Notes: generated by a model from the letters alone, not told the origin. A DNA stretch of 64,000 nucleotides from Candidatus Latescibacterota bacterium (GCA_965219455.1 OZ244744.1:4576001-4640000), one strand, 5' to 3'; positions 256-63,964 are shown, counted from the first letter of the stretch. Translations and numbers: made by a program.

Positions 256-345
256 ATATATCACAGCAATTCCCACTGCGCGCCATTCGGCGCTTGGCCA
301 AACGGCACAGCCCTTCGGGCTGTCGGGAATTGTCTAACGTTAACA
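256..345 (+). repeat. attC-like site (variant left core ATATATC)
   Basis: cACatcataTATC-ac-agcaattccc...gggaattg-tctaac-GTTAACA; internal cagcccttcgggctg hairpin. Confidence 0.65.
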
Positions 346-550
346 GAAAGCACGCGCCAAAGTCAAAACAGGCGGCCGTCCCGGCCGCCAGGAAAATCTT
401 TGAACCACTTCTCTTGCTTGATGGATTTGTTCTACAGCGAATGAGCTATACGGAGTTTTTTCGACCAGATTTTTCCGTAAAGGCAAGAGTTGGCGGCGAG
501 AAGACCAATATGAGTGCACAATAAGTGAAAGGCTACCCGGTGACGGTCAA

Positions 551-1426
551 ATGAAGCTACACATTCTCGGTAACGGTGGTCCGCGTCCCAGCCGTATGGG
601 TGAACGCTACGGGTGTTCCTGCATTCTCGAGATCGGTGACGATCGTATCATGGTTGATTGCGGCCCCGGCACCACCTACAAGATGGCACGCATGGGAATG
701 AGTCCTACACAGGTGAATTCGGTTTTCCTAACTCACCATCATTCGGATCATATCGTTGATTTCCCGTGTTTTGCCTTGCTACGGTTCGATCTAGACCCCG
801 GCGATCTTCCTCCCCTCAGAGTCTTTGGTCCGCCTCCGACTGTCGAATTCGTCGATCGCCTTTTTGGCAAGGACGGCGCCTTCCTTTCCGACGTCGTTGC
901 GCGTCGAGAACACCACATCAGCCACCACGGGCACGTGGGGAGAGGCGGAACGCTTCCCCGTCCGGGCATGAAGGTCGATGTATCCGACATCAGTTCGGGA
1001 GCGGTTGTCGAGGGGAAAGGTTGGAAGGCGACGGCTGTACAGGTTCCTCATGTCGAGCCTTACCTAACCGAGCTAGCGTACCGGATCGATACGGATAGCG
1101 GCAGCGTACTCTTCCTGTGCGATGCAGCGGACTGTCCCGAACTGAGGCCATTGGCCAGGGGGGTTGATACATTCGTTACGGGGCTCTCTATGCGCAATTT
1201 CAAGGAGAATGACGAAGATGCTTCGCATCCGATCCGGGGCGTCAGCGCGGACATATCAGAGGTCGTTGACATCGCTAATGAAGCTGGAATATCGAGGGTC
1301 GTGGTCATCCACTGCGGTTCGCCGCGCAGTGAGGACATCGTCGGCAGGCTCCGCCGAGGCTACCATGGGAATGGATATAGCGGTTGTATCGTGCGTCCTG
1401 ACGAGCTTACGACTGTTGAGATATAG
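551..1426 (+). CDS. MBL-fold metallo-hydrolase (RNase Z/AtsA-like)
   Basis: LGNGG start, VDCGPG, THHHSDH metal-binding motif. Confidence 0.88.
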   Translation: MKLHILGNGGPRPSRMGERYGCSCILEIGDDRIMVDCGPGTTYKMARMGMSPTQVNSVFLTHHHSDHIVDFPCFALLRFDLDPGDLPPLRVFGPPPTVEFVDRLFGKDGAFLSDVVARREHHISHHGHVGRGGTLPRPGMKVDVSDISSGAVVEGKGWKATAVQVPHVEPYLTELAYRIDTDSGSVLFLCDAADCPELRPLARGVDTFVTGLSMRNFKENDEDASHPIRGVSADISEVVDIANEAGISRVVVIHCGSPRSEDIVGRLRRGYHGNGYSGCIVRPDELTTVEI

Positions 1427-1688
1427 GTTGTGTAAGAGCGAGGAATCGGCCTTAACCCGGCACGGATAATTGATCTTCGACATTCTACCGTATGTTGGGG
1501 ATTTCTATGGAGCAGCTGTGGCGCCTGGCGCAAGAAACCCAACACCCCCACCCAGAAAATCGCGCACAAGAAACAATAACCACTCCATCCTGATTTCTTC
1601 ACAGCGAATGGATTTACCTCTCGATCTCATTGTAAGCTCTGCGAGCTCACGCGAAGATCAGGGAGTAATTCAATACCAGGAGAAACCA

Positions 1689-3146
1689 ATGACGGACGAG
1701 AAAGCGGCCTTCCTATTCATCGACAATACGTTAATCGAGAATCTCGACGGCGTCGTGCAAGGGGTCGTACCCGCAAAGAAGGCTTCGCAACAGCCGCTGA
1801 TTGAGAAGGATCGGGCCTGGGAAGAGGAGTGGCTGATCGGCGGCTACGTCAACGTCCTGTACGACGACGACGAAGATATCTTCAAGATGTGGTACGGCGT
1901 GGGCCGAAGATTGAGCGAAGCGCGTGGCGACGTGGCGGACGGACTGGCCTACGCCGTGTCCCAAGACGGGATCCACTGGGAAAAACCCGTCCTCAACCTC
2001 GTCGAGGACAGCGGCAGCAAAGAGAATAACCTGGTCTTTCCCTTTTTGAGGTGGGGGGCCGGGACAGGCGTCATGAAAGACCCCATCGAAACAGACCCAG
2101 CCAAGCGCTACAAGATGCTCTTTATGTTCCAGAGCGGAGACATGATATTCGCCGGCATTGTCCAGCCGGTCTGTGTGGCGTATTCTGCCGACGGAATTCA
2201 TTGGAACGTGCCCCAACGCTGGCTCAACCCGGTCATTCCACAGGGCTCGGATACCCACCTGGTCGCATATTGGGATGCAAAAATTCACCGCTACGTCGTT
2301 TATCTGCGGGGCCGGCCTAACGTGCGCATCATTTGCATGGCCGAGAGCGATGATTTCGAAAACTGGACCCCGCGCAAGATCATCGTCGCACCCGATGAGC
2401 ACGATCCCCCGCAGGACCAGGAGTTTTACGGCATGAGTTCGCTGGCGTATCGCGACTTTCGTATCGGCTTCCTGTCCGTGTTTCACACGCTCCACGAGGG
2501 GTGGATCGCCCGAAACCGGATCGAAGATTGGATGCCCGAATGGATGAACCGGATGGACATTCAGTTGACCTACTCGAAGAACGGCCGGACCTGGCATCGG
2601 GCGGGCAACCGTGAACCCATTCTGGAATGTGGCCCCCGCGGTAGCCACGACAGTGGAAATGTCTATCCGTCTCATGCCCCCTTTGTCCGTGGCGACGAGA
2701 TCTGGGTCTATCACAGCTGCTCAAACGAATTGCACGGCGAGGGGACGCGCTACGGCGAAGAATCCCGGCGGGGAATCAATCTGGCAAAGATCGAAAAGGA
2801 TCGGCTGGTCTGTCTGAAGACGGAGGCGCAGGGGGTCGTGACCACGGTCCCGCTGAGTATCGAGCCCAATGCATTGTGGATCAACGCCGATGCGACCGGC
2901 GGGTCACTGCGAGTGGAGATAGTCGATCCGTTTGACCGGGTCGTGCCGGGTTTTGGCAAAGAAGACTGCAGACTCTTCTCAGCGAATGAAACAGAATACC
3001 GGGTACAATGGAAAAGCGATCCGCAAGGCGCAGTCGGGGATAAAGAGGGTGGGCTCGAAGAGAAGATGGTCTCACAGGCACGCGGGGGGGTCAAGGTCAA
3101 AGTGTACCTTGACCGCGCCAAGCTATTTGCTCTTTATGCGTCCTAA
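1689..3146 (+). CDS. Beta-propeller glycoside hydrolase-like protein (GH32/GH43 clan-like)
   Basis: Repeated S-x-DG-x-x-W Asp boxes, FKMWY, RYKM; AGGAG RBS before ATG 1689 (ORF-track start 1470 is over-extended). Confidence 0.7.
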   Translation: MTDEKAAFLFIDNTLIENLDGVVQGVVPAKKASQQPLIEKDRAWEEEWLIGGYVNVLYDDDEDIFKMWYGVGRRLSEARGDVADGLAYAVSQDGIHWEKPVLNLVEDSGSKENNLVFPFLRWGAGTGVMKDPIETDPAKRYKMLFMFQSGDMIFAGIVQPVCVAYSADGIHWNVPQRWLNPVIPQGSDTHLVAYWDAKIHRYVVYLRGRPNVRIICMAESDDFENWTPRKIIVAPDEHDPPQDQEFYGMSSLAYRDFRIGFLSVFHTLHEGWIARNRIEDWMPEWMNRMDIQLTYSKNGRTWHRAGNREPILECGPRGSHDSGNVYPSHAPFVRGDEIWVYHSCSNELHGEGTRYGEESRRGINLAKIEKDRLVCLKTEAQGVVTTVPLSIEPNALWINADATGGSLRVEIVDPFDRVVPGFGKEDCRLFSANETEYRVQWKSDPQGAVGDKEGGLEEKMVSQARGGVKVKVYLDRAKLFALYAS

Positions 3147-3267
3147 AGCCATTTGGGGGTTCAACAATCATCCACGGCGAATAAACTGCATCAAGTTTTT
3201 CGGCTACGAATGGAATATGCCGAACTTTCTACGCAGAATCACAAGTCAGGCCGTACGGAGGTCCACT

Positions 3268-4395
3268 ATGAAGTGGGAACTGCTGCATCCGGACCAGGAG
3301 CAAGCCGAGGATGTACCCTGTAAGCGGGCGGCCTTCGGCGGGATGTTGAGCTACAATGGATGCGTCTACCTGTTCGGGGGGATAAAAGTGATGTACGGCC
3401 GGCCGAAAGGGCCTGGAGATCTTTCCGTCCAGGGCTCATTGAACGACCTGTGGCGCTACGACCCGGGTCGAGGCCGGTGGACGCGGTTGGAAGACCACGA
3501 TGGGCGCATCGGGTTCAGTCCGTCCGATACCAGACCGTGTACTCGGAAGCTCACGACCTGGCTGCCCGTGAACGGCAGGCTCTATCTTTTTGGAGGGTCC
3601 TCGGTGCGGGGCCCCGGCAAAGGGGCGATCAAGCTGAACGATCTCTGGGCCTACGATCCGAAGACAGCCTCGTGGGAGCTGATAGAGCCCGACGACGGGC
3701 GCGCATCAGGAATAACGGCGGATGGGCATCGTCCCGCCGGGTCGGGCGGGATGGGGGCGGCCGTTCTGGGTGATTACCTGTACCTGATGGGGGGACATGG
3801 CGCGATGACGCACGCACAGCTGTGGACCTACAAGGCGCCGGCCGGGAAATGGGAGCACCTGGGGCCTGCGTCGAATGGGCGCAACGGTTGGCCGCCGAAA
3901 CGATACTGTCCCGTGCTGGCCGGCTGGAACGGCAGGCTCTACCTGTGGGGCGGTCGGGACAGTCAGGGTCGAGCGCCGGAGTTCTACAACGATCTGTGGG
4001 AATACGATCCCGACGGAGGCGCCTGGACCTGCATTCAGGAGAACCGGGCAGATGACGTTGCACGGCCTTCCCCTCGGTACGGGCTGGGATACGCTGTGAT
4101 CGGAGATCACCTGTATCTGTTCGGAGGATTTGCAGGAGGGGAAGGGGAGCACCCCCAGCTGAACGATCTGTGGCAGTACGATCTTCGTGCCGGCCGGTGG
4201 GACTGTCTATATCCACACAACGGTGCGGAGGATTGCTCTGCTGGCGCCGAACGTCCCGGTGTCAGGCGAATCCCCGTTATGACAGTGGGGGGCGAGTCCG
4301 TCTATCTCTTCGGGGGGCTGGACCTGGCTACCGGGCCGCACGGGGACGGGCCGCTGGCGGCGTACAACGATTTCTGGCGCGGAACACCGGCCTGA
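3268..4395 (+). CDS. Kelch-repeat beta-propeller protein, copy 1
   Basis: Repeated LYLFGG...NDLWxYD units; GGAGG before ATG 3268. Confidence 0.9.
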   Translation: MKWELLHPDQEQAEDVPCKRAAFGGMLSYNGCVYLFGGIKVMYGRPKGPGDLSVQGSLNDLWRYDPGRGRWTRLEDHDGRIGFSPSDTRPCTRKLTTWLPVNGRLYLFGGSSVRGPGKGAIKLNDLWAYDPKTASWELIEPDDGRASGITADGHRPAGSGGMGAAVLGDYLYLMGGHGAMTHAQLWTYKAPAGKWEHLGPASNGRNGWPPKRYCPVLAGWNGRLYLWGGRDSQGRAPEFYNDLWEYDPDGGAWTCIQENRADDVARPSPRYGLGYAVIGDHLYLFGGFAGGEGEHPQLNDLWQYDLRAGRWDCLYPHNGAEDCSAGAERPGVRRIPVMTVGGESVYLFGGLDLATGPHGDGPLAAYNDFWRGTPA

Positions 4396-4424
4396 CAGGG
4401 CATTTCTTAAAGGAGATTCCGTAG

Positions 4425-4476
4425 TTGCATGCGAAGACCGAAGTCAATCCGATCCAGTTCGAGGTGATCCGCAACG
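4425..4476 (+). pseudogene. Hydantoinase B/oxoprolinase N-terminal fragment (17 codons)
   Basis: AGGAG RBS, TTG start, HAKTEVNPIQFEVIRN, then an abrupt break. Confidence 0.65.
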
Positions 4477-4479
4477 GAT

Positions 4480-4929
4480 GATCATCAAGGTGATGGACGT
4501 TTGCGCCTTGTGGACGACGTGAGGCAGTCGTTCCATGACAAAGTGATCCGTCTGACCATAATCGGGCGAGGTGGGCCATTGCAGGAATTGGAAGGCGCAA
4601 TCAAAACAAGGTGCAATGGTGCGGTGGAGACACATTGCTTCGAGAATTGGTATTCTCCTGGATGGTACTGGTTGACAGTGCACGATGAGAAGGCCACAAA
4701 AGACCAGGCTATTCGCATTGTGATGCGAGAGTGGGGTCTGGAAGGATCAGAGCTAGTGGTGTTCGGAGATGGTGACAACGATATTCGTATGCTTCAAATG
4801 GCTGACCGCGCGATTGTCGTCTCGAATGCAACAGATGAAGTGAAGAGGCATGCCACCGAAGTGATTGGCAGCAACAACGAGGATAGCGTTGCGAAGTTCA
4901 TTCGGGAGGATTGGACAGGGGCTGCCTAA
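4480..4929 (+). pseudogene. Cof-type HAD hydrolase, C-terminal half only
   Basis: KATKDQAI...VFGDGDNDIRML...SNA motifs; N-terminal DxD motif absent; stop TAA lies in the attC core. Confidence 0.8.
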
Positions 4930-5477: not shown

Positions 5478-5577
5478 CTCTAATGCTTCGCTCTATCGGG
5501 GAGCGCTGCTGTCGCGACGCTCCGTCGGCCATTCGGCAACCCGCTACGCGGATGCGCGAGTGGCCAGAAGGTTAGAC
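5478..5577 (+). repeat. attC-like site (left end degenerate)
   Basis: ggccattcggcaacccgctacgcgg...GTTAGAC. Confidence 0.6.
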
Positions 5578-5640
5578 GAAAGGCAGCAATGGCGTCGAGT
5601 CAGGCCCGTGGATTGGGACGCGGGGCAGGATATTTGCGGC

Positions 5641-6351: not shown

Positions 6352-6387
6352 GCCAAGGTGTAGGGACATTCTCCGAAACTGCCCGAG

Positions 6388-6470
6388 GTCTAACACCGTG
6401 CCCCCGCCTTCGGGTTTACGCCCGTCCCCCAACCTGCTTCGCAGGTTCACGGCCCGTGAGATCGTTGACT
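6388..6470 (+). repeat. attC-like site
   Basis: GTCTAACaccgtgccccc...aacctgcttcgcaggtt...GTTGACT; close to 31392 site. Confidence 0.8.
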
Positions 6471-6566
6471 GCACGCAAGAAATCAAAGAATGGCACACAC
6501 CGACTACCGTGGGGTTCCTTTTTCGTATGTCATAATAACTTTTTCACAAAGCAATGTGGGGACTGG

Positions 6567-7081: not shown

Positions 7082-7306
7082 TATCACGTGTGGAATGATG
7101 ATCCAAGGAAGGCGACTGCCTCCACGGATTTTGTTCATGGCTTTGTAGGACGGGAGGACGCGGTGAGCTATCAAGACAAGGCTCTCGATGATATTGTTGA
7201 ATGGATGCGGTTCGAGTGAGTGGCGATATTTGAGACTTGGGATTTCAGTTTCACGACTAAATTGCTCCCGTTTTTTGTGCCCCAATGGGTTGGCGAAATC
7301 CGATAG

Positions 7307-7567
7307 CACAGGGAGAGGTCGGTACAGACCGCGTTTGACCGGGCTTGCGAGAGAGCGAAAATTGTCCAGCGGATACCGACGCTACGGCATTCCTTTGCGA
7401 CACACCTGCTTGAACGCGGGACGGACCTGCGATATATCCAGGTGTTGCTCGGGCACGTAAGACCAAAGACCACACAGATCTATACTCGGGTGACGAATGG
7501 GGATCTCGCGAAAATCCAGAGCCCGCTGGATGCATTGATGGAAGAAAGGGAGGCAGTTTTTGATTAG
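7307..7567 (+). pseudogene. intI: Tyrosine recombinase (integron integrase-like) C-terminal remnant
   Basis: Not in the ORF track; reads [60 protein letters not shown]...IQSPLDAL; HxLRH has become PTLRH; N-terminus lost. Confidence 0.85.
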
Positions 7568-7583
7568 AGACCCACCATAGGAA

Positions 7584-7697
7584 GCATTCCTGAACATGTT
7601 CGGGCTACAAGCTTCAGCGTGGAATGTTCCCGAACGTTCGCAGATCTTCGGATCAGGTACGCATTACCGTAACTGTTCGGTAATACCGTAGTTAGCA
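7584..7697 (+). promoter_or_regulatory. attI-like site 1, downstream of the integrase remnant
   Basis: Homologous to 27547-27659 up to taataccgtaGTTA, then diverges; bases after GTT pair with the cassette end at 12142-12156. Confidence 0.75.
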
Positions 7698-7826: not shown

Positions 7827-9535
7827 CTAGCGCGGCTTCGCTTTGCTCAGCCGCAACCAAATAGGTGGTAGTCAAGAGCAGATAGTTTTAGGGTATGCAA
7901 AACGGCGTTCATCCCCTATGATGGTGGTACCCACCGCCATCAATGGAAGGAGGAACGCCGTGAAAGACTTCGTGGACCAATGTAGTGAAAAAATCACCGG
8001 AGTGGTATCCTGTTTTGATCGGGTTCTGTTCAAAGGGTACCTGCCGCTGGGATTTGGAACTGCGATGGAGCGGTTCATCAGCAATCAGGGTTTATTGTTG
8101 AAGGACTTCAAGCGTTTTGTGATGACGCATTCCGATACGATCAAAGCCCACGCGGAGGCGATGGCAAACAAGCACGAGCGCCCGTTCATCTATCTGCAAC
8201 GCAACACCATCAGGAAAGAGGACGAAGCGCGACGGTTGGCAAAACACGATGGGATCACGCAAGGCCTGGTCTGTGTGTTTCGGGCCCTGGAAGGCTGCCA
8301 GAGTTTCAAGCTGGTTCCAGGGGAAGGAAGGCCTCGCCTGATCAACGCACAACGGAAATGCCTATGCTACTACTTTTACTGGATTGACCGGGAGTTCGGG
8401 TTGATGCATATCCGCATCCAGTCCTGGTTCCCGCTGGTGGTGCAGATCTGTCTCAATGGCCACGAGTTCTTGGCGCGCAAGCTCGAGCAACACGGCATCG
8501 CCTATGAAAAATCAGACAACGCTTTTCTATGGATTGCCGATGTGGACCGGGCGCAACGCTTTGCCGATCGTTTTGTGGGCAAGAATTGGCCGCGCATTCT
8601 CTCGGCGTTCGCCCGCAAGGTCAACCCCCTGCTCAAAGACCTGCTTTCGGGCATGGACTACTACTGGGTCGTTGACCAAGCCGAGTTCGCCACCGACGTG
8701 ATGTTCCAAAGCCCCCACGCCCTGAAGGTGCTGTATGAAAACCTGCTCAGACACACGGTGCTGTGCTTCTCTCCCCAGGACATCTTGACCTTCCTGGGCC
8801 GCAAACTCCACGGCAATTTTCAGGGCGAAGTCCTCACGGACTTCAAAAACAAACGCCACAAAGGCGCAAGAGTCAAACACCGGATGTGCGAGAACTGGAT
8901 TAAAATGTACGACAAACACGGGTGCGTACTACGCGTCGAAACAGTGATCAACCATCCAAGGCAGTTCAAGGTCCGCCGCTGGGGCATACGGCGAGGACAA
9001 CGCGTGATGGGCTGGTATCCCATGGCCAAAGGCGTGGCCAACCTCTACCGCTATCGGGAAATCTCGTTGACGGCCAACCAACGCTACTTTCAGGCGCTGT
9101 CCGCAGCCCCTGACGCCGCTACCGGACATCAAAGCCTCACCACACTGGCGCGGCCACGCAGGCACAAGGGACGTACCTATCGGGGCTTCAACCCCGCCGA
9201 CCCTGCCGACCTCGCCCTGTTTACCGCTGTGTTGAAAGGCGAACACGCCCTGATGGGCTTCCGCAACCAGGACATCCGAACACACCTCTTCCAACATCCA
9301 GCATCCCTGCTGCAACGCACTCGGCACGCCAATGCCACCAGCCGCCGCCTCAAACGCCTACACGTCCGCGGCCTTATTGCAAAAATCCCACGGTCCAGAC
9401 GGTGGCGCGTCACACCCGAAGGGCACAAAATACTCGCCTTGTCTTTGACCCTTTACCATCAACACCCTACAACTAAACAAGCAGCATGAATAATTATCTA
9501 CGCATTTTGCGTAGAAGTCACACTGTAAGACTCTA
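7827..9535 (+). mobile_element. IS-like element with subterminal hairpins and no terminal inverted repeats
   Basis: gcggct...agccgc(aaccaaa) hairpin at left, tctacgca-ttt-tgcgtaga at right, CTA at both junctions; lies inside a cassette defined by matched ends; boundaries approximate. Confidence 0.6.
7960..9489 (+). CDS. Putative transposase of an unclassified family with C-terminal winged HTH
   Basis: GGAGG then GTG 7960; SCFDRVLFKG, WIKMYDK..LRVETVIN, GFRNQDIR...RLHVRGLIAKIPRSRRWRVT. Confidence 0.65.
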   Translation: MKDFVDQCSEKITGVVSCFDRVLFKGYLPLGFGTAMERFISNQGLLLKDFKRFVMTHSDTIKAHAEAMANKHERPFIYLQRNTIRKEDEARRLAKHDGITQGLVCVFRALEGCQSFKLVPGEGRPRLINAQRKCLCYYFYWIDREFGLMHIRIQSWFPLVVQICLNGHEFLARKLEQHGIAYEKSDNAFLWIADVDRAQRFADRFVGKNWPRILSAFARKVNPLLKDLLSGMDYYWVVDQAEFATDVMFQSPHALKVLYENLLRHTVLCFSPQDILTFLGRKLHGNFQGEVLTDFKNKRHKGARVKHRMCENWIKMYDKHGCVLRVETVINHPRQFKVRRWGIRRGQRVMGWYPMAKGVANLYRYREISLTANQRYFQALSAAPDAATGHQSLTTLARPRRHKGRTYRGFNPADPADLALFTAVLKGEHALMGFRNQDIRTHLFQHPASLLQRTRHANATSRRLKRLHVRGLIAKIPRSRRWRVTPEGHKILALSLTLYHQHPTTKQAA

Positions 9536-9731: not shown

Positions 9732-11108
9732 ATGGTACCCTGGATCTTCGTGCACAATCCCCTGGAGCACTGGCTGGACGACTACCCGCGCATCTTCGAC
9801 GCGTGGGAGGCGGGAGGGGTGGGCGGCATCGTGGTGGGACGGATGTGGCTCAGGAACGAGGCCGGCATGCCGTTGTGGGGGGACACCCTCACCCCCTCGT
9901 TTGCGGCGGACCCAAAGGTGTACGCCGCGTTCGGCATCAAGCCGCCCCCGGAAACGGCCCGCACCCCCGAGAGGGAGAAGCAGCTCCACGCGCTCCTCGA
10001 CAACGCCGCCTCCCGGGGCTGGCACATCATGATCTTCGACTCCAGAGACGGGCTCCGGCTGCTCTACCAGCGGGGCCAGGGTACCACCAGCGGCCTAGCC
10101 GAGGAGGAGGACCCTTTCGGGGCCATCGAGGTGGCCGCCGGGGTGCACGACCTGGCCAGTGCCTATCCCCAGGCCCACGGCGTCATCCTGGACCAGCCCG
10201 GTGAGACCTTCTACGAACTTGCCTTCCATCGGGGTAAGGCCCTACTGGAACTGGACGGTCGCATGCGGCACCGCTTGGAAGCCATCGGCGCCGATGTGGA
10301 GCGCGTCGCCCGCGGCATGGCGCACCTGAACGAGCGTTTCCACAACCTGACTCCGGATCTGGTGCGCTACCACGCGTCCGGCGGCATGCTGGGGGCACTG
10401 AACCTGTTCGACCTGAACGAGGATGCCCTGTACTGGCTGCGCGCCCGCCGCGAAGCGGCGCGGGGGTTCATGCGCGCCGTGCACGCGCAGATGCAGAGAG
10501 TGGGAGGGAAGGTGGAGCTGGGGGGCATTCCGCGCACCGCCGCTTTCTCGTCACTGACCGGGCACGAATTTGGCGAGATGGCGGAGTACTTCGACTACGT
10601 CTTCCCCAAGCACTACTTCTGGCACCGCGGGAATGACGGCCTCTACGGCACCATGGCCCGCTGGGTGCAGCAGGTCCTGGACTGGAACCCGACCCTGTTG
10701 GAGGCAGACGGCTTCGCCGTGGTCAAGGCCTTCCTGGGGCTGGAGCTTCCCGGGGTGCAGACCCTGGCGGACATGGAACTGGGGTTCCCCGAGGAGTTCT
10801 ACTCGGAGCTGGTGTACAACGAGACGCGCCGAGCGCTGGAGGCCATCGGGGATGTGAACAAGGTGATCGCCTGGGTGTCGACGGGGCGCCGTCCGCACGG
10901 GGGCGAGCCCATGACCGCCCGCGACCTGCACGGCATCCTGACCGCCTCCGAGCGGGCCGGCCTGCAGCGCTTCCTGTTCCAGCCGGACCCTGATCTGAGC
11001 GCCCCCGAATGGAGCGTGATCTCCGACCTGTGCGGCAAGCGCTGGCACCCGAGCCGCGACGGGTACTGGCCCTCGGACTCCAGCAGGCCCGACGCGTTCA
11101 GCAGGTAG
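9732..11108 (+). CDS. Conserved hypothetical protein (possible TIM-barrel/glycoside hydrolase-like), GC-rich
   Basis: 458 aa ORF with GAGG RBS and strong GC3 bias. Confidence 0.75.
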   Translation: MVPWIFVHNPLEHWLDDYPRIFDAWEAGGVGGIVVGRMWLRNEAGMPLWGDTLTPSFAADPKVYAAFGIKPPPETARTPEREKQLHALLDNAASRGWHIMIFDSRDGLRLLYQRGQGTTSGLAEEEDPFGAIEVAAGVHDLASAYPQAHGVILDQPGETFYELAFHRGKALLELDGRMRHRLEAIGADVERVARGMAHLNERFHNLTPDLVRYHASGGMLGALNLFDLNEDALYWLRARREAARGFMRAVHAQMQRVGGKVELGGIPRTAAFSSLTGHEFGEMAEYFDYVFPKHYFWHRGNDGLYGTMARWVQQVLDWNPTLLEADGFAVVKAFLGLELPGVQTLADMELGFPEEFYSELVYNETRRALEAIGDVNKVIAWVSTGRRPHGGEPMTARDLHGILTASERAGLQRFLFQPDPDLSAPEWSVISDLCGKRWHPSRDGYWPSDSSRPDAFSR

Positions 11109-11595: not shown

Positions 11596-12149
11596 CGAAC
11601 ATATCGAGCCTCCCATACACTTCGTGCGTGGTGCTCCGAAGTGACGGCCTCGGACATCGACGTAGAAGATCTGTATTGTCGGGCCATGAGCGCCGTCGCA
11701 AAATAAAGCGCTCCTGGACCCACCTCAACACCACTACCCACACATTGGCCTGTGTCACACCGGTTGCTTGATTTTTACACCTATCGAAGTGGCGAAAAGG
11801 CGACGGAGAAAATTGAATATCCGGCGGAATGCACCTTCGTCTTGTCCAAAAGCTCACTTGCTAATGACTTGACTATGCCGAAGGCTGCGCCCCTACCCAG
11901 AGGGCATGCCGCTAAGTTCGGGATCACTTTGCTCGCGTGCCGCTTGGAGGGGCCACTGCCCTTGCTGGTCCTGACGTGAAGGTTTTGGAGAGATGTCGTG
12001 ATCTCTTCGGTATTGCCTAGGGCTAAACCATTTTTTCGAATCGGATCTCAGGTCATCCCAATCAGATGAGAGGAACCAAACCTATGTCGCACGCTGTATG
12101 TACGCGCCGATCTCCAGGACCGAGAGGGGCGCCACCCCGATGCGACTTC

Positions 12150-12301
12150 TGCTAACACGGGCTATTCGCTCCGGTCGCTTCGCTCCCTCCGGCCCTTCGG
12201 GCACATTCCCCTTTGTCACGTCGCTTGCTGAGAGACGCAAGCGCCGCGCCAATCCGGCTTCGCCGGACCGGGGAACGTCGTATAGCCCGGGAACGTTATC
12301 T
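12150..12301 (+). repeat. Long multi-hairpin attC-like site
   Basis: TGCTAACacgggctat...atagcccgggaacGTTATCT with several internal hairpins. Confidence 0.85.
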
Positions 12302-12330
12302 GCAATTGCCCCAGAGATCGCGATGTCTAC

Positions 12331-12870: not shown

Positions 12871-12931
12871 TAAAAAACACTGAAGACGACTTCGAGATTC
12901 TTAACGCATCGCATTAGCTAGGGACAACTGC

Positions 12932-13019
12932 AGCTAACACGTCGGGCTGCGGCTCCGGCCCTTTCGGGCCTCCGCAGCAACCTGCTGGCGCAGGTTCGCA
13001 GCCCGCGGGAACGTTATAA
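12932..13019 (+). repeat. attC-like site
   Basis: AGCTAACacgtcgggctgcg...cgcagcccgcgggaacGTTATAA. Confidence 0.85.
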
Positions 13020-13209
13020 GCCATGCCAGCGTTCCTCCAAAAGCAGGCGGCCGTCCTGGCCGCCCAAGAGAATCTCACTACGTTCTTCAGTAGCGGAAAT
13101 TTCGCTTGAAGAACTTAATTAAGATATGTAGATTTATAGCAGGTCTATAGGTGACCAATCGCAGCAGAATTGAACCGTCTTTACCATATTAAAAACAATA
13201 TGATATATA

Positions 13210-13695
13210 ATGATTCCTAAGGTCAACATCGAGACATCTATTCCCAGTTTCTATTACGAAACACGTACAGAACCCGAGATGGCTGCAAAGCGGACTTGGA
13301 CACGCCAGTGGTGGGACGAACGGCGTGAGGGTTATGAGATTTTCACCAGTGAAGCGGTTATCGATGAACTCAGTGGAGGAGAGTATCCTAACAAGGACCG
13401 AGTATTGGCCCTGGTTGCTCCTTTGCCACTGCTGCCAATTGAACGAGAAATCGCTGAGATTGTAGAAGCATATATCCAACACCAGATGATGCCTAGTGAT
13501 CCCCTGGGCGATGCACTCCATCTTGCTACAGCCTCTTATCATAAGTGTGAATTTTTGCTCACATGGAATTGCAATCATCTGGCTAACGCGAATAAGTTTG
13601 CCCACATCAAGCGAGTCAACACTATTCTTGGCTTATATGTGCCCACGTTGGTGACTCCGCTGGAACTCCTAGGAGATATTGAAGATGAAAGATGA
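13210..13695 (+). CDS. PIN-domain (VapC-like) toxin
   Basis: IETSIPSFY, SEAVIDEL, DALHLA, LLTWNCNHLAN. Confidence 0.88.
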   Translation: MIPKVNIETSIPSFYYETRTEPEMAAKRTWTRQWWDERREGYEIFTSEAVIDELSGGEYPNKDRVLALVAPLPLLPIEREIAEIVEAYIQHQMMPSDPLGDALHLATASYHKCEFLLTWNCNHLANANKFAHIKRVNTILGLYVPTLVTPLELLGDIEDER

Positions 13696-13855
13696 TCCGA
13701 CCATTCGTAGGATTCGTGAAGTGCGTCATAGGATTTCGGAGCAATGTGATCACGACCCAGAGAAATTGGTGGCGTATTACATAAGACGCCAGAAAGAGCA
13801 TCCTGAGAAGCTGGTGCGGAAAAGTAGAGAAGAATCGGTGAAACGGGAGACATAA
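13685..13855 (+). CDS. Small putative antitoxin partner (56 aa)
   Basis: MKDDPTIRRIREVRHRISEQCDHDPEKLVAYY; overlaps the PIN gene end; below ORF-track cutoff. Confidence 0.7.
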   Translation: MKDDPTIRRIREVRHRISEQCDHDPEKLVAYYIRRQKEHPEKLVRKSREESVKRET

Positions 13856-13974
13856 TCCCTCGTTCTTCTTTCAAGATTTCCGCTGAATAATTCATTTAGC
13901 GGAAATTCTGTTTCAGCGACAAAGCGGCCTTGCCATCCGTGGCAAGGCCGCCCCCGCCCCCCGGCTGGCACAAC

Positions 13975-14058
13975 ACATAACACGTCCGTGCCCGGCTACG
14001 GGCCATACGGCCCTTCGCGCAACCGCTTCGCGGTTCGGGCACGGCGAAAACGTTAGCC
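13975..14058 (+). repeat. attC-like site (main family)
   Basis: ACATAACacgtccgtgcccg...caaccgcttcgcggttcgggcacggcgaaaacGTTAGCC. Confidence 0.9.
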
Positions 14059-14169
14059 GCAATTAATAGAGCATTGATTTCCATACGTAGTTAGACAGCA
14101 CGAGACAGCCTGTCCGCACTTTTACAGTCCAATTGCGACGCAATTCTTACAGCAACACAAGAGGATATA

Positions 14170-15090: not shown

Positions 15091-15169
15091 GAAGTCTGTC
15101 TGAATGAGTTAGCGGCTACATTTTGATACATAAGGCCCCGACAATGAACGGATACGAATTAATCACGAC

Positions 15170-15270
15170 GGCTAACACCGGCTTTACGCTTCGGGGCATC
15201 CGCCCCTCGGCCCTGCGGGCACATGGGCCTTTGGGACTGGCCCACGTCGTAAAGCCAAGAACCGTTAACC
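15170..15270 (+). repeat. attC-like site
   Basis: GGCTAACaccggctttacg...cgtaaagccaagaaccGTTAACC. Confidence 0.85.
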
Positions 15271-15447
15271 GAAAGCGGCGCAAGTGTTCCCAGCCACATT
15301 ACCCCAAAAAATCGCGCACAAAAGGCAACAACCACCTTATTTTGAAGTCTTCCACGGCGAATAAACTGTATCAAGTTTTTCGGCTACGAATGGAATATGC
15401 CGAACTTTCTCCGCAGAATCACAAGTCAGGCCGTGCGGAGGTCCACT

Positions 15448-16575: not shown

Positions 16576-16604
16576 TAGGGCATTTCTTAAAGGAGATTCC
16601 GTAG

Positions 16605-16941: not shown

Positions 16942-17032
16942 TGAAGAGACCAAAATCACAGTATCGGCCTGCAAATCAAGATAACAAGGTTTGTTATCAA
17001 ACACCCGAATTAACAACCGCATGGAGGACCCA

Positions 17033-52444: not shown

Positions 52445-52497
52445 AAAGCAGGACGACGATCGCTTCTTCGATCTTTCGGCTGGAAAAACAACACGGC

Positions 52498-52581
52498 TCT
52501 TAACACGAGCACCCACGGCTTCGGGGCTTCGCCCCTACGCGCAACCGCTACGCGGGTTCGTGGGTGCCAAGAACGTTATGT
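52498..52581 (+). repeat. attC-like site
   Basis: TCTTAACacgagcacccacg...cgtgggtgccaagaacGTTATGT. Confidence 0.88.
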
Positions 52582-53107
52582 GCCCTGGCATTTTTTGACT
52601 GAGCATGCAGGAGAGCGGGGACACAGCAGAACCATTGAGACATTGTGGAGACCCGGAATGGACGATCGTGCGTTTTCAGAGATTCGGGATATGCTGGATC
52701 AAGGGATTGCCATCGAGGAGACGCGGGAGCAGGTTAGCCAGGGTTTTCGGGATGTGGCCGACGCGCTGACCGACTATCATCAGGCTCTCGATGCGATGCG
52801 ACAGTGGCAGCAGTATTACAATCACCAGTGACCGCATTAGACGATTCAGTATCTCTGTCCGATCGACTATTGCCGCGGCGATCCTGCTTCTCGTACCGCA
52901 CAACGCGACCAGAAACTCGTGCAGGGCGCCCAACGTCGCAGGATGTATTGGCAAACCAAATCCGAAATCTCAACCTTACAAACCTCTCACATCCAAAAAC
53001 ACGCCGATTGTCTCACTTTGAAATAGGCAAAACACGTTGTCTCTTGTCGTGTAATTGAAAACTGCATGACCCTGTGTCAGGTATGTCATATTGGGAGCAC
53101 TTTGATT

Positions 53108-55976: not shown

Positions 55977-56879
55977 ATGATCAGATACGAGAGCCGTCCA
56001 ATTATCGTGCTGGGGGTAGAGCGCAGCGGGACCTCTGTCGCTGCCGAGATGGTACATAGATGGGGCGCCTATGCTGGCGCTTCCGAAAGGCTGCACGAAG
56101 CTGATACCCATGCGCCCAGAGGATATTGGGAATATCTGCCGTTATGGGATTTTCTGGCCGAGTTAGGTGACTTTGCTTCCGGAGCGACGTGGTGGGACCG
56201 TGACTTCCAGCAGCGAATAGAAGACAAAGCCACTGAACCAGGGTACAGAATTAAAGCCGTTGAACTGATGTCAGAAATGCATAACGGTGGTCCCTTTTTC
56301 TGGAAGGACCCTGCGCTCGCCCATTTTTTGCCGTTTTGGAAACAGATATGGGAAGAGGCGGTTTATGTAATCACGATTCGCAACCCTCTCGATGCAGCAG
56401 TGTCGTGGCAGAAGTTCATTATGCCGTCCAATGTGAAGGTTCGAGTCTCTTTTGTCGCGTTGAATTTGCTGCGTTGGCAGCGCATGATGACACTGATACT
56501 GCATCACACAGAAGATTCGGCGCACCGGATCTTTCTTGGCTACGAAGACATCATGCTCAAACCACGCGAGCAGGCCAGGAGATTATCAGAATTCCTGAAC
56601 TTGAAGTTTGAGAACCGCCCTTCAAGAATTCAGGCGATGGTTGAGGCAGTTGACCCTCGACTGTGGCGGAATTATTGCAGGATCCCCTTTGAGGAAGTGC
56701 CTGAAGCTACAGATCAACAGAAAGCGCTCTATATCTTTGCAAGGCAGAAAATCATCAATCCATTCGAGCACTTCGACATCGCAGAGTACCCACTCCCGCC
56801 TGGGCATCTTGAGTTCCTGAACGTTCAAGAGGCTCTTCTGAAAGCCTGTCGTGACCTTGAAACGCCAACGAACGCATAA
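55977..56879 (+). CDS. Sulfotransferase family protein
   Basis: LGVERSGTS, WKDP, IRNPLD, YED; stop in the attC core. Confidence 0.85.
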   Translation: MIRYESRPIIVLGVERSGTSVAAEMVHRWGAYAGASERLHEADTHAPRGYWEYLPLWDFLAELGDFASGATWWDRDFQQRIEDKATEPGYRIKAVELMSEMHNGGPFFWKDPALAHFLPFWKQIWEEAVYVITIRNPLDAAVSWQKFIMPSNVKVRVSFVALNLLRWQRMMTLILHHTEDSAHRIFLGYEDIMLKPREQARRLSEFLNLKFENRPSRIQAMVEAVDPRLWRNYCRIPFEEVPEATDQQKALYIFARQKIINPFEHFDIAEYPLPPGHLEFLNVQEALLKACRDLETPTNA

Positions 56880-56953
56880 CTCCGTGCCCCGCGTCGGCGC
56901 AGGGACACCTTAGTTTAACCGCTGCGCGATTCGGTGGCACTGCGACGTTTTAA
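56874..56953 (+). repeat. attC-like site
   Basis: GCATAACtccgtgcc...ggcactgcgacGTTTTAA. Confidence 0.75.
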
Positions 56954-56995
56954 ACTAACGGCAATAAACCGAAGCCTGGCAGTTCGTCGAGAGAT

Positions 56996-58049: not shown

Positions 58050-58994
58050 ATGGACACTTTGGCGATTGCTCCCTGGAACGACGAAGATCTGGAGCCGGTG
58101 ATCGACCTCTGGCAGCGGGTGTTTGCAGACCGGAAATATGATTTCCATATGGATGAAGCGGGGTTTCGGCAGCGCGTCTTGGCTCATCCGGATTTTGATC
58201 CGGAGGGGGCGTTAATTGCACGGATGGACGCAAGGGTTGTCGGGTTTGTTCTGGCGGTGGCGCCAGGACCAGGGGAGACGGGCTACCTGAGCGTGTTGAT
58301 GGTGGATTCCGGTTTTAGGCAAAAGGGGATTGGGGGCATGCTCCTGGATGCAGCGGACGGATATCTGGCGGGTCGCGAAAAGAGCGAGATGCGGATCGGT
58401 TACAAGGGCAATCCAATCTCATTTGCAACAGGTGTCGACATGAAGACGCCGGCCTACACGTTTTTCCTGAATCGCGGATTCCGCAACCGCGGGTCGGCGA
58501 GTCTGTTTATGGAAACGACGTTTGCGGAGTTTGAGCTTCGGGAGGAGATCGAAGGATACATTGAAAATAACCGATCTCGAGGCATCCTGTTCGGGATGTG
58601 CGAAGCCGGACATCGGGAGGCGCTGTGTGGGTTTATGAAGGCACTGTTCCCGGGCGGTTGGGAGGCTTCTGTGAAAGGATGTATGGACGGAGATCCACCA
58701 TATCCCGTGCTGATCGCCACGGACGGGCCGACAGTGGTGGGTTTCGCCGGGCCGGCCCACGTGGGCAAGGATGGAAGCGGCGGCTTTACCGGGATCGGGA
58801 CACATCCGCACTACCGGCGGGGCAAGATCGGTACGGTGCTGTTCAACCTGATGTGCGCGGAGTTCAAGAAAGGTGGTGTGGCACGCAACACGCTCCATAC
58901 GGGACTGAATAATCCGGCTCAGGAGATCTATTTCGGCGCCGGGTATCGTGTGCGGCAGTTGGTGGATTATGGTCTGGTAAAACGCTTGGGGTAA
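58050..58994 (+). CDS. Tandem-domain GNAT acetyltransferase
   Basis: FRQKGIG and YRRGKIG motifs. Confidence 0.85.
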   Translation: MDTLAIAPWNDEDLEPVIDLWQRVFADRKYDFHMDEAGFRQRVLAHPDFDPEGALIARMDARVVGFVLAVAPGPGETGYLSVLMVDSGFRQKGIGGMLLDAADGYLAGREKSEMRIGYKGNPISFATGVDMKTPAYTFFLNRGFRNRGSASLFMETTFAEFELREEIEGYIENNRSRGILFGMCEAGHREALCGFMKALFPGGWEASVKGCMDGDPPYPVLIATDGPTVVGFAGPAHVGKDGSGGFTGIGTHPHYRRGKIGTVLFNLMCAEFKKGGVARNTLHTGLNNPAQEIYFGAGYRVRQLVDYGLVKRLG

Positions 58995-59683: not shown

Positions 59684-59711
59684 ATCGCCGGAGTCGGCGG
59701 GCTGCACAGGC

Positions 59712-59796
59712 CGCCAACCCGACGGTGCGCGGCTCGGTACATTCGCACCCTCGCCCCACTGTCCTCGGCAGCGCACGCACTGCGGTAATGTTCGAT
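59712..59796 (+). repeat. Degenerate attC-like site
   Basis: CGCCAAC...gtgcg...cgcac...GTTCGAT. Confidence 0.55.
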
Positions 59797-59880
59797 GACA
59801 CGGACTAAGCGAGTTGGGAAAACGAAATGCGGGCCATTCTTTTCAATCCATATGAAACGTTGAAAACGGAATACAATCCT

Positions 59881-60655: not shown

Positions 60656-60748
60656 CCATAACAACACAGTGTTGCGCTGCGGCGGCTTTTTCCGCCCCGG
60701 TCTTCGACAACCCTCTGCGCGGGTTCGCAGCCCACGGGAACGGACGGC
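60656..60748 (+). repeat. attC-like site (right core eroded)
   Basis: CCATAAC...gcgctgcggcgg...caaccc...gggttcgcagccc. Confidence 0.7.
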
Positions 60749-60861
60749 GCAGGATTTCGAGCATCGCACGTTCCTTCCTTGTCCGCATTTCTGTTACCCT
60801 GGTCGTCGCAGTCGTTGCGCTCGAAACGCCCGGCGCGAACCCGATAGAGGAGAAGAAAATA

Positions 60862-62781: not shown

Positions 62782-62920
62782 ACTGATTTCCAACATCGTC
62801 TACGGCAAAATTGGTACGCCTATCAGGAAAAAAACACGAAACGGGGTGATGACCGCCCCGTTGTTTCTTTTGATGATCTTTCAGATTCACGTCTCTTCCA
62901 ATGCATCCACTTATGCTAAG

Positions 62921-63037
62921 GTGACCGAAGACAAGGCGCGCTCCCTCCCCGAATCCCCCGATTCGGGGAGGGAGCGCAACGCAGTAATTCGGCCACAAGA
63001 GCCGGCCGCAGACCGGATGGACTTTTTCAACGGGCTG
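62921..63037 (-). mobile_element. Partial inverted copy of the 37566-37725 MITE
   Basis: ggactttttcaacgggctg-ctaa end; shared internal sequence. Confidence 0.8.
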
Positions 63038-63052
63038 CTAAGGTCGGTAGAA

Positions 63053-63113
63053 AGCCAACAGCTCAGCAGGCCTGTTAACGTTGCGCGGTTCGTGGTCACG
63101 GACGACGTTTTCT
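63053..63113 (+). repeat. Degenerate attC-like site
   Basis: AGCCAAC...gcgcggttcg...acGTTTTCTgcaAT. Confidence 0.55.
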
Positions 63114-63151
63114 GCAATAAAATGACTTCCCTGACACGGGAGGCAAGCGGC

Positions 63152-63964
63152 ATGGTCAACACAAATCTGCCGGTGATTACACGAAGCAGGTTGGTATCAG
63201 ACTTATCGAAACTGGGGCTTGCCGCTGGCGACACCTTGATGCTGCATGCTTCTGTCAAGGCAGTCGGCTGGATCGTAGGGGGCCCTGAAATGGTGCTTCG
63301 GGCGATCCTGGACGTGCTCGGTTCAACGGGGACCTTGATGATGTACGTGAAGTGCGAGGAGCCGTTGAACGAAATCGAAGATTGGCCGGAGGAATGGCAG
63401 AAAGCCTATCTGGAAGAATGTCCGCCATTTGATCCTTCCCGGACTCGCGCATTTCGTGAGTGGAGCATCCTTACAGAGTACCTGCGCACGTGGCCAGGGG
63501 CACGTTGCAGCGCCCATCCCGAGGCACGAGTGGCAGCAGTTGGCGCGAGGGCGGATTGGATAACGTCAGACCATCCGCTTCAGTTTGGTTACGGCGCGGA
63601 TTCCCCCCTCGAGAAGTTGTGCGAAGTTCGGGGGAAAATACTCCTGCTTGGACAGCTTTTCGATAGCCTCACCATTCTCCACTACGCGGAACACATTGCT
63701 GACGTGCCCAACAAGAGAACAGAGCGCTATCGATGGCCGGTTTTGCGCGGCGGCACGTGCGAATGGATAGCGTTCGAGCAGTTCGATACTTCCAATGGAA
63801 TCGTTGACTGGCCCGATGGCAGCTATTTCCAGTCCATTTCAAAAGAGTATATGGCTCGCGGACGCTACGCGGAGGGGCGGGTTGGAGCCGCAGACTCGTA
63901 TCTGTTCGACGCCCGGGATCTGGCAGACTTCGCGATCGCATGGATGGAAGAACAGTTCGGTTAG
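63152..63964 (+). CDS. aac(3): Aminoglycoside 3-N-acetyltransferase family protein
   Basis: LGLAAGDTLMLHASVKAVGWIVGG, PPFDP, SAHP, TILHYAE. Confidence 0.88.
   Translation: MVNTNLPVITRSRLVSDLSKLGLAAGDTLMLHASVKAVGWIVGGPEMVLRAILDVLGSTGTLMMYVKCEEPLNEIEDWPEEWQKAYLEECPPFDPSRTRAFREWSILTEYLRTWPGARCSAHPEARVAAVGARADWITSDHPLQFGYGADSPLEKLCEVRGKILLLGQLFDSLTILHYAEHIADVPNKRTERYRWPVLRGGTCEWIAFEQFDTSNGIVDWPDGSYFQSISKEYMARGRYAEGRVGAADSYLFDARDLADFAIAWMEEQFG

Follow-up and report, generated by a model that had tools for sequence, protein, structure and literature searches.

The array and its sites

The stretch of DNA described here, 64,000 nucleotides (nt) long and referred to as the window (G000:C1:4576001-4640000), comes from the genome of a Candidatus Latescibacterota bacterium (G000), a single contig of 5.84 Mb; public sequencing runs that contain the window sequence are mostly labelled as sponge metagenomes and belong to 12 studies. 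Along its + strand, genes take turns with branched hairpin sites that resemble attC, the recombination site of integron gene cassettes, and we consider it very likely that the whole is a cassette array of the integron type. The enzyme cognate to it is probably a tyrosine recombinase that is related to the integron integrase IntI and lacks I2, the additional domain of that protein.

A greedy map of open reading frames (ORFs) showed genes and sites in turn, with 47 of the 50 ORFs of at least 150 amino acids (aa) on the + strand and sites placed after genes in one orientation, as cassettes are arranged in integrons. Pfam and NCBIfam matches among the cargo comprise GNAT acetyltransferases, six SAM methyltransferases, three APH-family kinases, two NUDIX hydrolases, PIN and HicB (toxin–antitoxin) proteins, HAD hydrolases, FMN reductases, a metallo-beta-lactamase-fold protein and one AAC(3)-family acetyltransferase, a gene content that is typical of chromosomal integrons.

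The sites have the form TAAC-ACG(T)-stem-two hairpins-stem'-CGAGAAC-GTTA and lie directly 3' of + strand genes. They were detected with two covariance models. R1, built from seven seed sites, found 48 matches in 264 kb at an expectation value (E) of at most 1, with 47 on the + strand. R2, built from an alignment (A4) of the 36 best R1 matches and run over the window with filters off, gave 32 matches at E ≤ 1 (31 on the + strand, one on the − strand), and all 25 with E < 0.01 were on the + strand. Genome-wide, the 39 R2 matches at E ≤ 0.001 were likewise all on the + strand, 36 at 4,550,737-4,734,915 and three at 2.543-2.547 Mb; these counts are lower bounds, since 150 of 3527 candidates were scored. 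Across the array DNA of G000 and two sister genomes, G013 and G011, all 87 R2 matches are oriented with the array. The − strand matches of R1 (10421-10503, E 0.0023) and R2 (58698-58781, E 0.83) were taken as chance.

Simpler searches were less informative. A literal search for the 3' motif found five matches with at most two mismatches against 1.31 expected, a number that one of 100 shuffles also reached, and was insufficient as proof by itself. A generic inverted-repeat finder returned 12 pairs and overlooked nearly every site because the stems are short and interrupted, while roughly half of the 24 candidates from an ad hoc TAAC...GTTA scan fell within genes, and the scan was superseded by the covariance models. 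No Rfam family matched the window; Rfam appears to be without an attC family. The sites in the window are as follows (scores are from R2 unless stated, and GTT denotes the 3' box).

254-347, +: attC-like site; 52.4 bits, E 1.2e-11; apex with three hairpins in the DNA fold; homology to G013 and G011 picks up again 4 nt from GTT
5505-5579, +: weak, doubtful attC-like match within an ORF; 15.6 bits, E 0.13
6386-6472, +: attC-like site; 39.4 bits, E 4.2e-8
12148-12303, +: attC-like site, long form of 156 nt; 44.4 bits, E 1.8e-9; multi-branched fold of −41.6 kcal/mol, z −5.0
12930-13021, +: attC-like site; 89.3 bits; fold z −5.6; left end of a one-cassette deletion in a metagenome contig
13973-14060, +: attC-like site, main family, top match; 97.8 bits, E 4.9e-24
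15168-15272, +: attC-like site; 54.2 bits; three apex hairpins
16859-16944, +: attC-like site, main family, R' mutated (GAT for GTT); 69.6 bits
17936-18064, +: weak attC-like site, 129 nt; 12.7 bits, E 0.78; TAAC...GTTA ends and an 8-bp stem
19114-19201, +: attC-like site, main family, R' GTC; 85.5 bits
20057-20173, +: attC-like site; 22.3 bits, E 0.0019
20959-21049, +: attC-like site; 51.3 bits
22819-22911, +: attC-like site; 28.8 bits, E 3.3e-5
23720-23812, +: attC-like site; 52.1 bits
28368-28454, +: attC-like site, main family; 75.6 bits
29600-29689, +: attC-like site; 65.1 bits; site body stands behind another gene in G013
30668-30765, +: attC-like site; 53.9 bits; G013 and G011 homology blocks end or start 2-5 nt from the GTT position
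31390-31473, +: attC-like site; 72.8 bits
33587-33681, +: attC-like site; 37.2 bits
35838-35932, +: attC-like site; 32.0 bits, E 4.4e-6
36720-36799, +: attC-like site; 48.8 bits; G013 homology block stops 3 nt from GTT
38610-38726, +: attC-like site; 21.6 bits, E 0.003
40833-40882, +: short attC-like match; 20.0 bits, E 0.0081
41355-41431, +: weak attC-like match; 13.3 bits, E 0.55; also an nhmmer match
42312-42402, +: attC-like site; 39.5 bits
43418-43483, +: weak attC-like match; 14.6 bits, E 0.24
52496-52583, +: attC-like site, main family; 83.6 bits
55062-55103, +: degenerate 3' half of a main-family site; nhmmer E 0.9, read by eye
56872-56955, +: weak attC-like match; 17.3 bits, E 0.043; G011 homology block stops at the 5' box
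59710-59798, +: attC-like site; 51.9 bits
59876-60002, +: weak attC-like match; 17.8 bits, E 0.033
60657-60750, +: attC-like match; 20.9 bits, E 0.0046; G013 homology begins 2 nt from the GTT position

A first-pass annotation, made from the sequence of the window alone, had described about 35 sites of 45-165 bp in an array spanning 256-63964. Its count agrees with ours: the 31 + strand R2 matches are joined by two or three degenerate remnants read by eye, with lengths of 50-156 nt. Its span needs qualification. Sites do occur throughout, but they are dense only at approximately 12-43.5 kb (median site-to-site spacing at 12-43 kb, 1100 bp; n = 22, range 549-4642) and sparse beyond, with none at 43.5-52.5 kb, where IS1182-family transposase genes occupy the DNA, and only five matches at 52-61 kb. 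The array also outruns the window on both sides. It begins about 25 kb upstream and extends at least 32 kb downstream, covering approximately 121 kb from 4,550,737 to 4,671,813 in genome coordinates, with an outlying site at 4,734,827. A second, small array at 2.54 Mb (genome 2,529,543-2,546,679; L016/L017) has the same site type on the + strand and shares two cassettes with the main array, at 97.6% identity over 2437 bp and 96.8% over 946 bp.

Fifteen sites were folded as single-stranded DNA. In most of them TAAC and GTTA pair in an outer helix, followed inwards by an internal loop, a stem of 9-11 bp and a multiloop from which two or three hairpins branch, in line with the earlier description of an apex of two or more hairpins rather than one rod; z-scores were mostly −2.6 to −5.6, with three weaker sites at −0.8, −1.4 and −1.4. 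An independent alignment of the seven seeds (MAFFT/RNAalifold) recovered the stem and both apex hairpins, with compensatory changes in 9 of 22 pairs. In A4, 93.2% of the paired cells can pair, a figure inflated by the fitting of the alignment to the model; shuffles gave 71.6%, none of 500 reached 93.2%, and controls with slid partners gave 29-43%. Compensatory changes affect 22 of the 26 A4 pairs. The proposed covariation of the inner stems is thereby upheld, and the stems quoted for it are present, ccgtgccc/gggcacgg of the main family at 13977, 16863, 19118 and 28372 and the others at 12934, 15172, 30676 and 52500.

In the terms used for attC, the L''/L' stem is a 9-bp helix with compensatory changes in seven of nine pairs, so that structure is kept and sequence is not, as in attC sites. 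The R''/R' boxes also follow the attC pattern: among 49 main-array sites, AAC and GTT are each found at the modelled position in 35. An outer pair is still more regular, with C at −4 in 41 sites and G at +4 in 45, so the R box can be written CnnnTAAC/GTTAnnnG. The 3' apex hairpin is nearly invariant, and the two-hairpin junction covaries as a conserved part of the site. All 36 A4 sites have an asymmetric spacer, with a 5' part of 2-4 nt and a 3' part of 6-9 nt, the surplus of 2 to 5 nt lying on the L'-R' side every time, and in 28 of them the L arms are contiguous.

According to the available text of published work, canonical attC sites carry extrahelical (unmatched) bases on the R''-L'' arm and have an apex ranging from 3 nt to the branched structure of the VCR sites (PMC2727003); I2 docks the extrahelical bases and is needed for cassette capture, and its deletion inactivates IntI1 (PMC7790495). 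Most of the array sites have no such bases in the L stem. As VCR sites are already branched, the branched apex is not new in kind; what is new in these sites is the absence of extrahelical bases together with the reversed asymmetry. With L arms mostly free of gaps and extra bases on the opposite arm, this geometry suits a protein without I2.

Beyond the site itself, several cassettes open directly after the GTTA with a similar leader (ACAGAAAGCACGCGCC...), followed by a GC-rich hairpin, GGCGGCCGTCC(C/T)GGCCGCC; instances lie at window 347-410, 13020-13075 and 13915-13960 and at genome 4552049-4552100.

The recombinase gene and its attI-like region

No integrase gene with the I2 additional domain was found in G000. 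The model TIGR02249 has no match over its cut-off (265 bits) there, the best reaching 88.9 bits, nor in any of the 14 genomes of the genus. Fragments scoring below the cut-off lie on the array strand at genome 4547491, 4556745 and 4583289, the last being window 7289-7537. They belong to a shorter recombinase, which in the window is represented by two features.

7307-7564, +: remnant of an insertion-less tyrosine recombinase gene, C-terminal ~87 codons; 85% identity to residues 246-332 of the intact 333-aa sister protein
7565-7694, +: attI-like region ending in GTT (G at 7692); ~130 nt, conserved behind each recombinase copy

The remnant covers TIGR02249 positions 229-315 (80.6 bits), with one TAG in the reading. 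In G013 the ORF is intact, at 333 aa, and its C-terminus differs little from the G000 fragments. The three G000 copies are the head copy, reduced to the last ~56-90 codons, one with an internal deletion of ~400 bp, and the window copy; no further copy was found in the genome, two other matches being Xer-like (33-36% identity), and no recombinase gene was found near the second array.

The attI-like region has three GTTCG-type boxes and three small hairpins. Seven loci (two in G000, one each in G013 and G011, two in other Latescibacterota metagenome-assembled genomes (MAGs) and one in a Gemmatimonadota MAG) are conserved as far as CC(G/A)TAGTT and diverge at the very next base into cassette-like sequence, which is the signature of an attI junction. 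A putative attI thus appears to adjoin the recombinase gene, with cassettes that seem to begin at G↓TT (the arrow marks the joint), as in integrons.

The gene points towards the array, and both the intact G013 gene and the G011 gene adjoin arrays. R2 matches lie solely downstream of the gene in all four loci with a long copy (L028-L031), and over 14 recombinase loci all 41 matches are on the strand of the gene. In G011 the gene heads the array, and the conserved chromosomal flank ends approximately 0.8 kb away from it. The left end of the G013 module coincides with the GTT in the attI-like region of a truncated head copy, and that of its G000 counterpart (99.0% identity over 1753 bp) exactly with the G in the GTT of an ordinary site, 4555108-4555254. 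Bounded by G↓TT on both sides, the module fits the array head or the interior, like a cassette. Another intact homologue, of 331 aa, is found in G016 (L079, G016:C1:1716001-1730000), where sites flank it on both sides on the opposite strand.

Pfam identifies Phage_int_SAM_4 and Phage_integrase domains in the recombinase. It scores 218.6 bits with an NCBIfam model for XerA-type and integron integrases (cut-off 220), and 214 bits with TIGR02249 in two stretches that skip positions 175-234. Its best relative of solved structure is VchIntIA (2a3v, E 2.8e-43), ahead of XerA (7.5e-35), in a match that omits chain residues 171-239. Alignment with a true IntI, that of the related genome G017, gave 41% identity and gaps of 25, 6 and 10 residues (41 in total) at the IntI-specific domain. 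Similarly, the GKxxKxR patch (patch II) and the HxLRH box are 58-59 aa apart in all 17 short proteins that could be measured, compared with 100 aa in all five measurable IntI proteins. In a quick maximum-likelihood tree of 35 proteins, two Xer proteins split off with support of 100, and the remainder forms a trichotomy of 12 canonical IntI (99), 17 short array-type proteins (87) and four integrases that accompany IS91 elements (83). Judged by its sequence, the recombinase is probably a member of a sister group of IntI that lacks the I2 insertion of ~41 residues, within a trichotomous tree.

A subgroup of the IS91 family, in the ISfinder classification, carries a tyrosine recombinase gene upstream of a Y2 transposase gene. 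No Y2 gene lies behind the copies in G000, G013, G011, L030 and L031. Two related genomes do carry such a combination as a 2.5-kb unit, present in six copies in G020 (97.9-99.6% identical, with a seventh comparison at 94.4%) and three in G017, for example:

L071:4846-7352 (G020): integrase+Y2 unit
L077:4699-7233 (G017): integrase+Y2 unit

The unit carries a gene for a 283-aa recombinase that shares 51% identity with the G013 protein, as well as a 394-aa ORF with Y2_Tnp (206.6 bits) and Zn_Tnp_IS91 (110 bits) domains. All nine copies read ...GTT↓GAAC on the left and ...CG↓TTA on the right, the latter followed by variable cassette-like sequence. The left flanks in G020 resemble the attI-like region; in G017, two units sit at GTT 191 nt behind the true IntI gene, and the third is inside a canonical-looking attC (GCCTAAC...GTTAGGC). 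At its right end the unit has a GTTCAAC box of its own, an 11-12-bp stem and a longer 3' spacer, with the same asymmetry as the array sites. These units suggest a link between rolling-circle elements and integron-type recombination.

Homologues of the recombinase occur further afield. On the Rufibacter tibetensis plasmid NZ_CP012644.1 (L081:3795-6792) a homologue is followed by at least six small ORFs on the same strand, set apart by hairpin sites of 60-190 nt with TAAC...GTT(A/G) ends, apparently a similar array in Bacteroidota. On a Gemmatimonadota MAG contig (L043), a C-terminal recombinase fragment (79% identity) is accompanied by the attI-like region and by six sites belonging to the array's family, owing to either cross-phylum transfer or a binning error. 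R2 found nothing at three loci with more distant homologues, in Bacillota (L032), Saprospiraceae (L033) and Emticicia (L039); at L033 a large operon, not cassettes, follows the gene.

Cassette turnover among related genomes

Several lines of evidence indicate that cassettes have moved. The first comes from within G000:

14053-15264, +: duplicated cassette, a PhyH-family dioxygenase gene with its site; also present at genome 4550848-4552060, where another site precedes it

In a self-comparison, window 14071-15283 and genome 4550848-4552060 were 99.9% identical. The identity opens at the GTTA of two otherwise different upstream sites, allowing for an 11-nt indel.

Relative to G000, the arrays of G013 and G011 are collinear mosaics. 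G013 is without 11.9 kb of G000 cassettes (window 17.7-29.6 kb) and has two cassettes in swapped order. Its homology to G000 stops exactly at the GTGTAAC of the 17936 site and goes on with a site body of the 29600 type. The proximal array is 99.6% identical to that of G011 over 7.8 kb, with the chromosomal flank at 88.3%. We counted the ends of homology blocks that fall inside 4,547,700-4,672,000, having dropped blocks that were shorter than 400 bp, less than 80% identical or inverted. In G013, 14 of 88 ends lay within 30 nt of a predicted GTT, against a mean of 2.3 and a maximum of 9 in 1000 random draws. The first-pass annotation had held that a gene order fixed across related genomes, with no breakpoints at GTT, would point to terminators or repetitive extragenic palindromic (REP) elements instead of recombination sites; the order varies among the sister genomes and breakpoints at GTT are enriched.

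Assembled metagenome contigs, which testify to presence and not to frequency, add further joints. One contig omits one cassette, 13009-14047; the 1039 nt missing from it exactly equal the interval from GTT to GTT between adjacent sites. A total of 21 contig ends (eight and seven from one run, six from another) match as far as 14055/14056, just after the GTTA of the 13973-14060 site, and then continue differently, in sequences that resemble cassette starts. Contig joints that lead backwards along the array (for example from 19142 to 14026) were rejected as excised circles, being junctions of near-identical sites.

Sites of the array type were found in 29 of the 41 genomes searched in the order. 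The short recombinase, intact or broken, is present at E ≤ 1e-30 in 10 of the 41: six of the seven genomes with at least 23 sites, three of the 22 with 1-15 sites and one of the 12 with none, a pattern that, given the kinship of the genomes, does not amount to a test. Canonical IntI was found in two of the 41 genomes and in none of the 14 sister genomes. G020 combines 70 sites with no IntI, while G017 has IntI and only six sites of the array type.

Favoured explanation, alternatives and known systems

The explanation that we favour, and regard as likely overall, is that the window is the middle of a sedentary integron-type array in which an I2-less sister of IntI serves as the exchanger. A cassette would consist of an attC-like site and the + strand gene or few genes that precede it. 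As a single strand, the site would fold into an outer R box, an unpaired spacer with unequal sides and an L stem of 9-11 bp, at the end of which two hairpins meet in a three-way junction, and such folded single strands are the presumed reacting substrate. The recombinase would then catalyse the exchange of cassettes by site-specific recombination, the strands crossing over, as they do in integrons, at the G↓TT of the 3' box or next to it. The first cassette would begin at the GTT that ends the ~130-nt attI-like sequence behind the recombinase gene, and the recombinase module, itself bounded by G↓TT, could sit at the head of the array or inside it, with relatives fused to an IS91-type Y2 transposase gene. 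Exchange would have been lost in G000, where the copies are broken; sister species retain intact copies. Given breakpoints at both GTT and TAAC ends and the reversed asymmetry, the reacting strand could be either one, and the recombinase may accept both. More tentatively, the array could belong to a distinct, I2-free lineage of integrons, defined by attC sites with a three-way junction, reversed asymmetry and no extrahelical bases, perhaps read from either strand, by a recombinase that is itself cassette-borne and by kinship with IS91 companions.

A number of observations weigh against this explanation. Every recombinase copy in G000 is broken and the activity of the protein is a prediction from sequence; with all copies broken, the array is probably frozen in G000 unless it is served in trans. 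The family is large, with at least 7969 relatives at E ≤ 1e-20, including proteins of other phyla at 57-66% identity, and it commonly accompanies IS91 elements, as on a Paracoccus plasmid where a homologue stands beside a gene annotated as an IS91 family transposase; family size and companionship together mean that its primary role may be transposon-related. The G016 gene lies on the strand opposite to its sites. In the duplicated cassette, identity runs 19 nt beyond the GTT of the common downstream site, which we explain by the conservation of cassette starts (the G at +4). In G011, 8 of 72 block ends lie within 30 nt of GTT (random mean 1.8), below the random maximum of 9, and the ends farther than 30 nt from a predicted GTT number 74 of 88 in G013 and 64 of 72 in G011; undetected sites, insertion sequences and divergence account for many of these. 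Some breakpoints coincide instead with the 5' TAAC box, as at window 17945 and 29608. Window 3168-4476 and 15348-16656 are 97.8% identical segments of Kelch-repeat genes whose ends are not at sites; with no bounding sites, this duplication was not counted as a cassette move and points to site-independent duplication or recombination. Finally, 20 of the 29 site-bearing genomes have no short recombinase at E ≤ 1e-30, and canonical IntI does exist in the phylum, in 17 of 168 genomes, lying in G017 directly upstream of an integrase+Y2 unit.

The last two points also favour the main rival, which we consider unlikely: that an I2-bearing IntI built the array and has since been lost, leaving an orphan classical array in which the short modules are selfish passengers at GTT. 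In keeping with this, the G017 units occupy the attI GTT behind a true IntI and, once, a canonical-looking attC, and the modules are multi-copy and bounded by G↓TT as cassettes are. The rival is weakened above all by the insertions in G020 and by the geometry of the sites. With 70 sites, six near-identical units at GTT and no IntI in G020, something besides IntI must have acted recently, and the array sites are without the extrahelical bases that IntI reads. Moreover, no sister genome has IntI, yet the arrays of the sisters differ, with cassettes 99-100% identical across species whose flanks are 88-90% identical; the short gene of G011 stands at the array head beside the conserved chromosomal flank; and G017, which bears IntI, has just the six sites of the array type.

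Arrays of this orphan kind are covered by the term CALIN, which IntegronFinder uses for clusters of attC sites without an integron integrase. If the present sites are counted as attC, G000 operationally falls within it, having at least two sites and no integron integrase nearby; no functional integrase lies near its array, and the 20 related genomes just mentioned likewise have none. Unlike a CALIN, however, the array has remnants of one specific recombinase and an attI-like site both within it and at its head, and sister genomes keep intact copies.

We consider it very unlikely that the G↓TT-bounded insertions are made by a Y2 (HUH) transposase through its own choice of tetranucleotide, with the likeness to integrons a coincidence. 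The 394-aa ORF does have the Y2_Tnp and Zn_Tnp_IS91 domains for this, and one of the nine left flanks ends in CTTG, a typical IS91 target. The other eight, however, have ...AG or ...AAG ahead of TT instead of ending in CTTG or GTTC, and all nine insertions are at the same position within attI-like or attC sites. The unit ends carry an R''/L''/L'/R' site, and the module of the G013 type has identical G↓TT ends without a Y2 gene. IS91 elements with an integrase do resemble the present system, as the array recombinase and that of the G020 unit are 51% identical and both groups cluster with IntI apart from Xer. They differ in that the array-head copies (G011, G013, L030, L031) are followed by the attI-like region and cassettes rather than Y2, and in that the units enter at G↓TT within attI or attC and not at loose tetranucleotides.

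The weakest alternative, that the repeats are intrinsic terminators or REP-like palindromes (or bacterial interspersed mosaic elements) with no role in recombination, is suggested by GC-rich hairpins directly 3' of genes and all on the coding strand, and is highly improbable in view of the absence of a T-run after the sites, the AAC/GTT boxes at fixed distance, the confinement of sites to two loci of the genome, the GTT junctions in attI loci, duplicated cassettes and metagenome contigs, the gene content that varies between sister genomes and the lack of an Rfam match.

Among known systems, the Vibrio cholerae superintegron with its VCR sites is similar in many respects: a long one-directional array of promoterless-looking cassettes; imperfect-palindrome sites whose AAC...GTT boxes are set off from an L stem by an unpaired spacer and whose apex varies and is sometimes branched; an attI-type G↓TT junction beside a tyrosine recombinase gene; duplication and turnover of cassettes between relatives; and toxin–antitoxin, acetyltransferase and methyltransferase cassettes. 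In contrast to superintegrons, the recombinase here is without I2 and its gene points towards the array rather than away from it; L stems are mostly free of extrahelical bases, and it is the opposite arm that is the longer; the junction of two hairpins is conserved and covaries; and the recombinase module is itself cassette-like. The first-pass reading of the array as a non-proteobacterial super-integron therefore stands as regards a very large cassette array in Latescibacterota with structure-conserved sites, but the I2-bearing IntI that helps to define an integron is absent from G000 and from all 14 sister genomes. In 'inverted' integrons such as that of Treponema denticola, intI has the same direction as the cassettes and the integrase keeps the IntI insertion. 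The present arrays share the common direction of integrase gene, attI and cassettes, as does the true IntI of G017, and differ in that the insertion is absent from their recombinase.

In the available text of a 2021 review, 14 phyla with integrons are named and Latescibacterota is not among them (PMC8618304). Our literature search, to which subscription journals and supplements were largely closed, found no insertion-less integrase with attC arrays; it also found no IS91-linked integrase acting at attC, again with subscription journals largely outside its reach, and no integrons in Latescibacterota, a phylum that the supplementary taxon tables of IntegronFinder-type surveys may list. In the prevailing view, I2 turned a Xer-like recombinase into an integron integrase, a claim that the present array makes directly testable. 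If a distinct, I2-free lineage of integrons does exist, the capture of cassettes as single strands did not need the acquisition of I2, and the ancestors of integrons may have been integrases linked to IS91, an element whose transposase produces single-stranded circles. Finders that demand the IntI motif would then miss or misfile a whole class of arrays in uncultured phyla, such as those of Latescibacterota, the Gemmatimonadota MAG L043 and the Bacteroidota plasmid. The array would widen gene-cassette capture to a candidate phylum of sponge symbionts, connect integron-type sites with IS91-type elements and warn of under-counting by integrase-motif-based finders. The resistance-type enzymes among its cassettes (AAC(3), APH, metallo-beta-lactamase fold) bear on environmental reservoirs.

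The remaining features of the window are a cassette gene and several insertions.

62846-63964, +: AAC(3) aminoglycoside 3-N-acetyltransferase-family gene; NF033082 343.8 bits (cut-off 270), PF02522 216 bits
45158-46528, −, and 46706-48052, +: two IS1182-family transposase genes; NF033551 360.8 and 370.3 bits (cut-off 270)
7830-9533, +: insertion sequence of 1704 bp, not part of the array; cleanly absent in G013 and G011
17736-17909, +: insertion of 174 bp resembling a miniature inverted-repeat transposable element (MITE), not part of the array; 26-nt terminal inverted repeats

The longest ORF of the AAC(3)-family gene has approximately 110 additional N-terminal residues, and G013 and G011 each have a second copy, 86-87% identical, elsewhere in the array. 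The 548-aa ORF of the 1704-bp insertion sequence had no match in Pfam or NCBIfam and may be an undescribed transposase; G000 has 11 full or near-full copies at 93-100% identity, and the flanks of the window copy suggest a target duplication of TA or CTA. The MITE-like element is missing from G013, and one metagenome contig skips 165 nt of it with a 5-nt ambiguity (CTTAG). It has 45 BLAST matches in the genome, and its contig depth in sponge metagenomes is very high.

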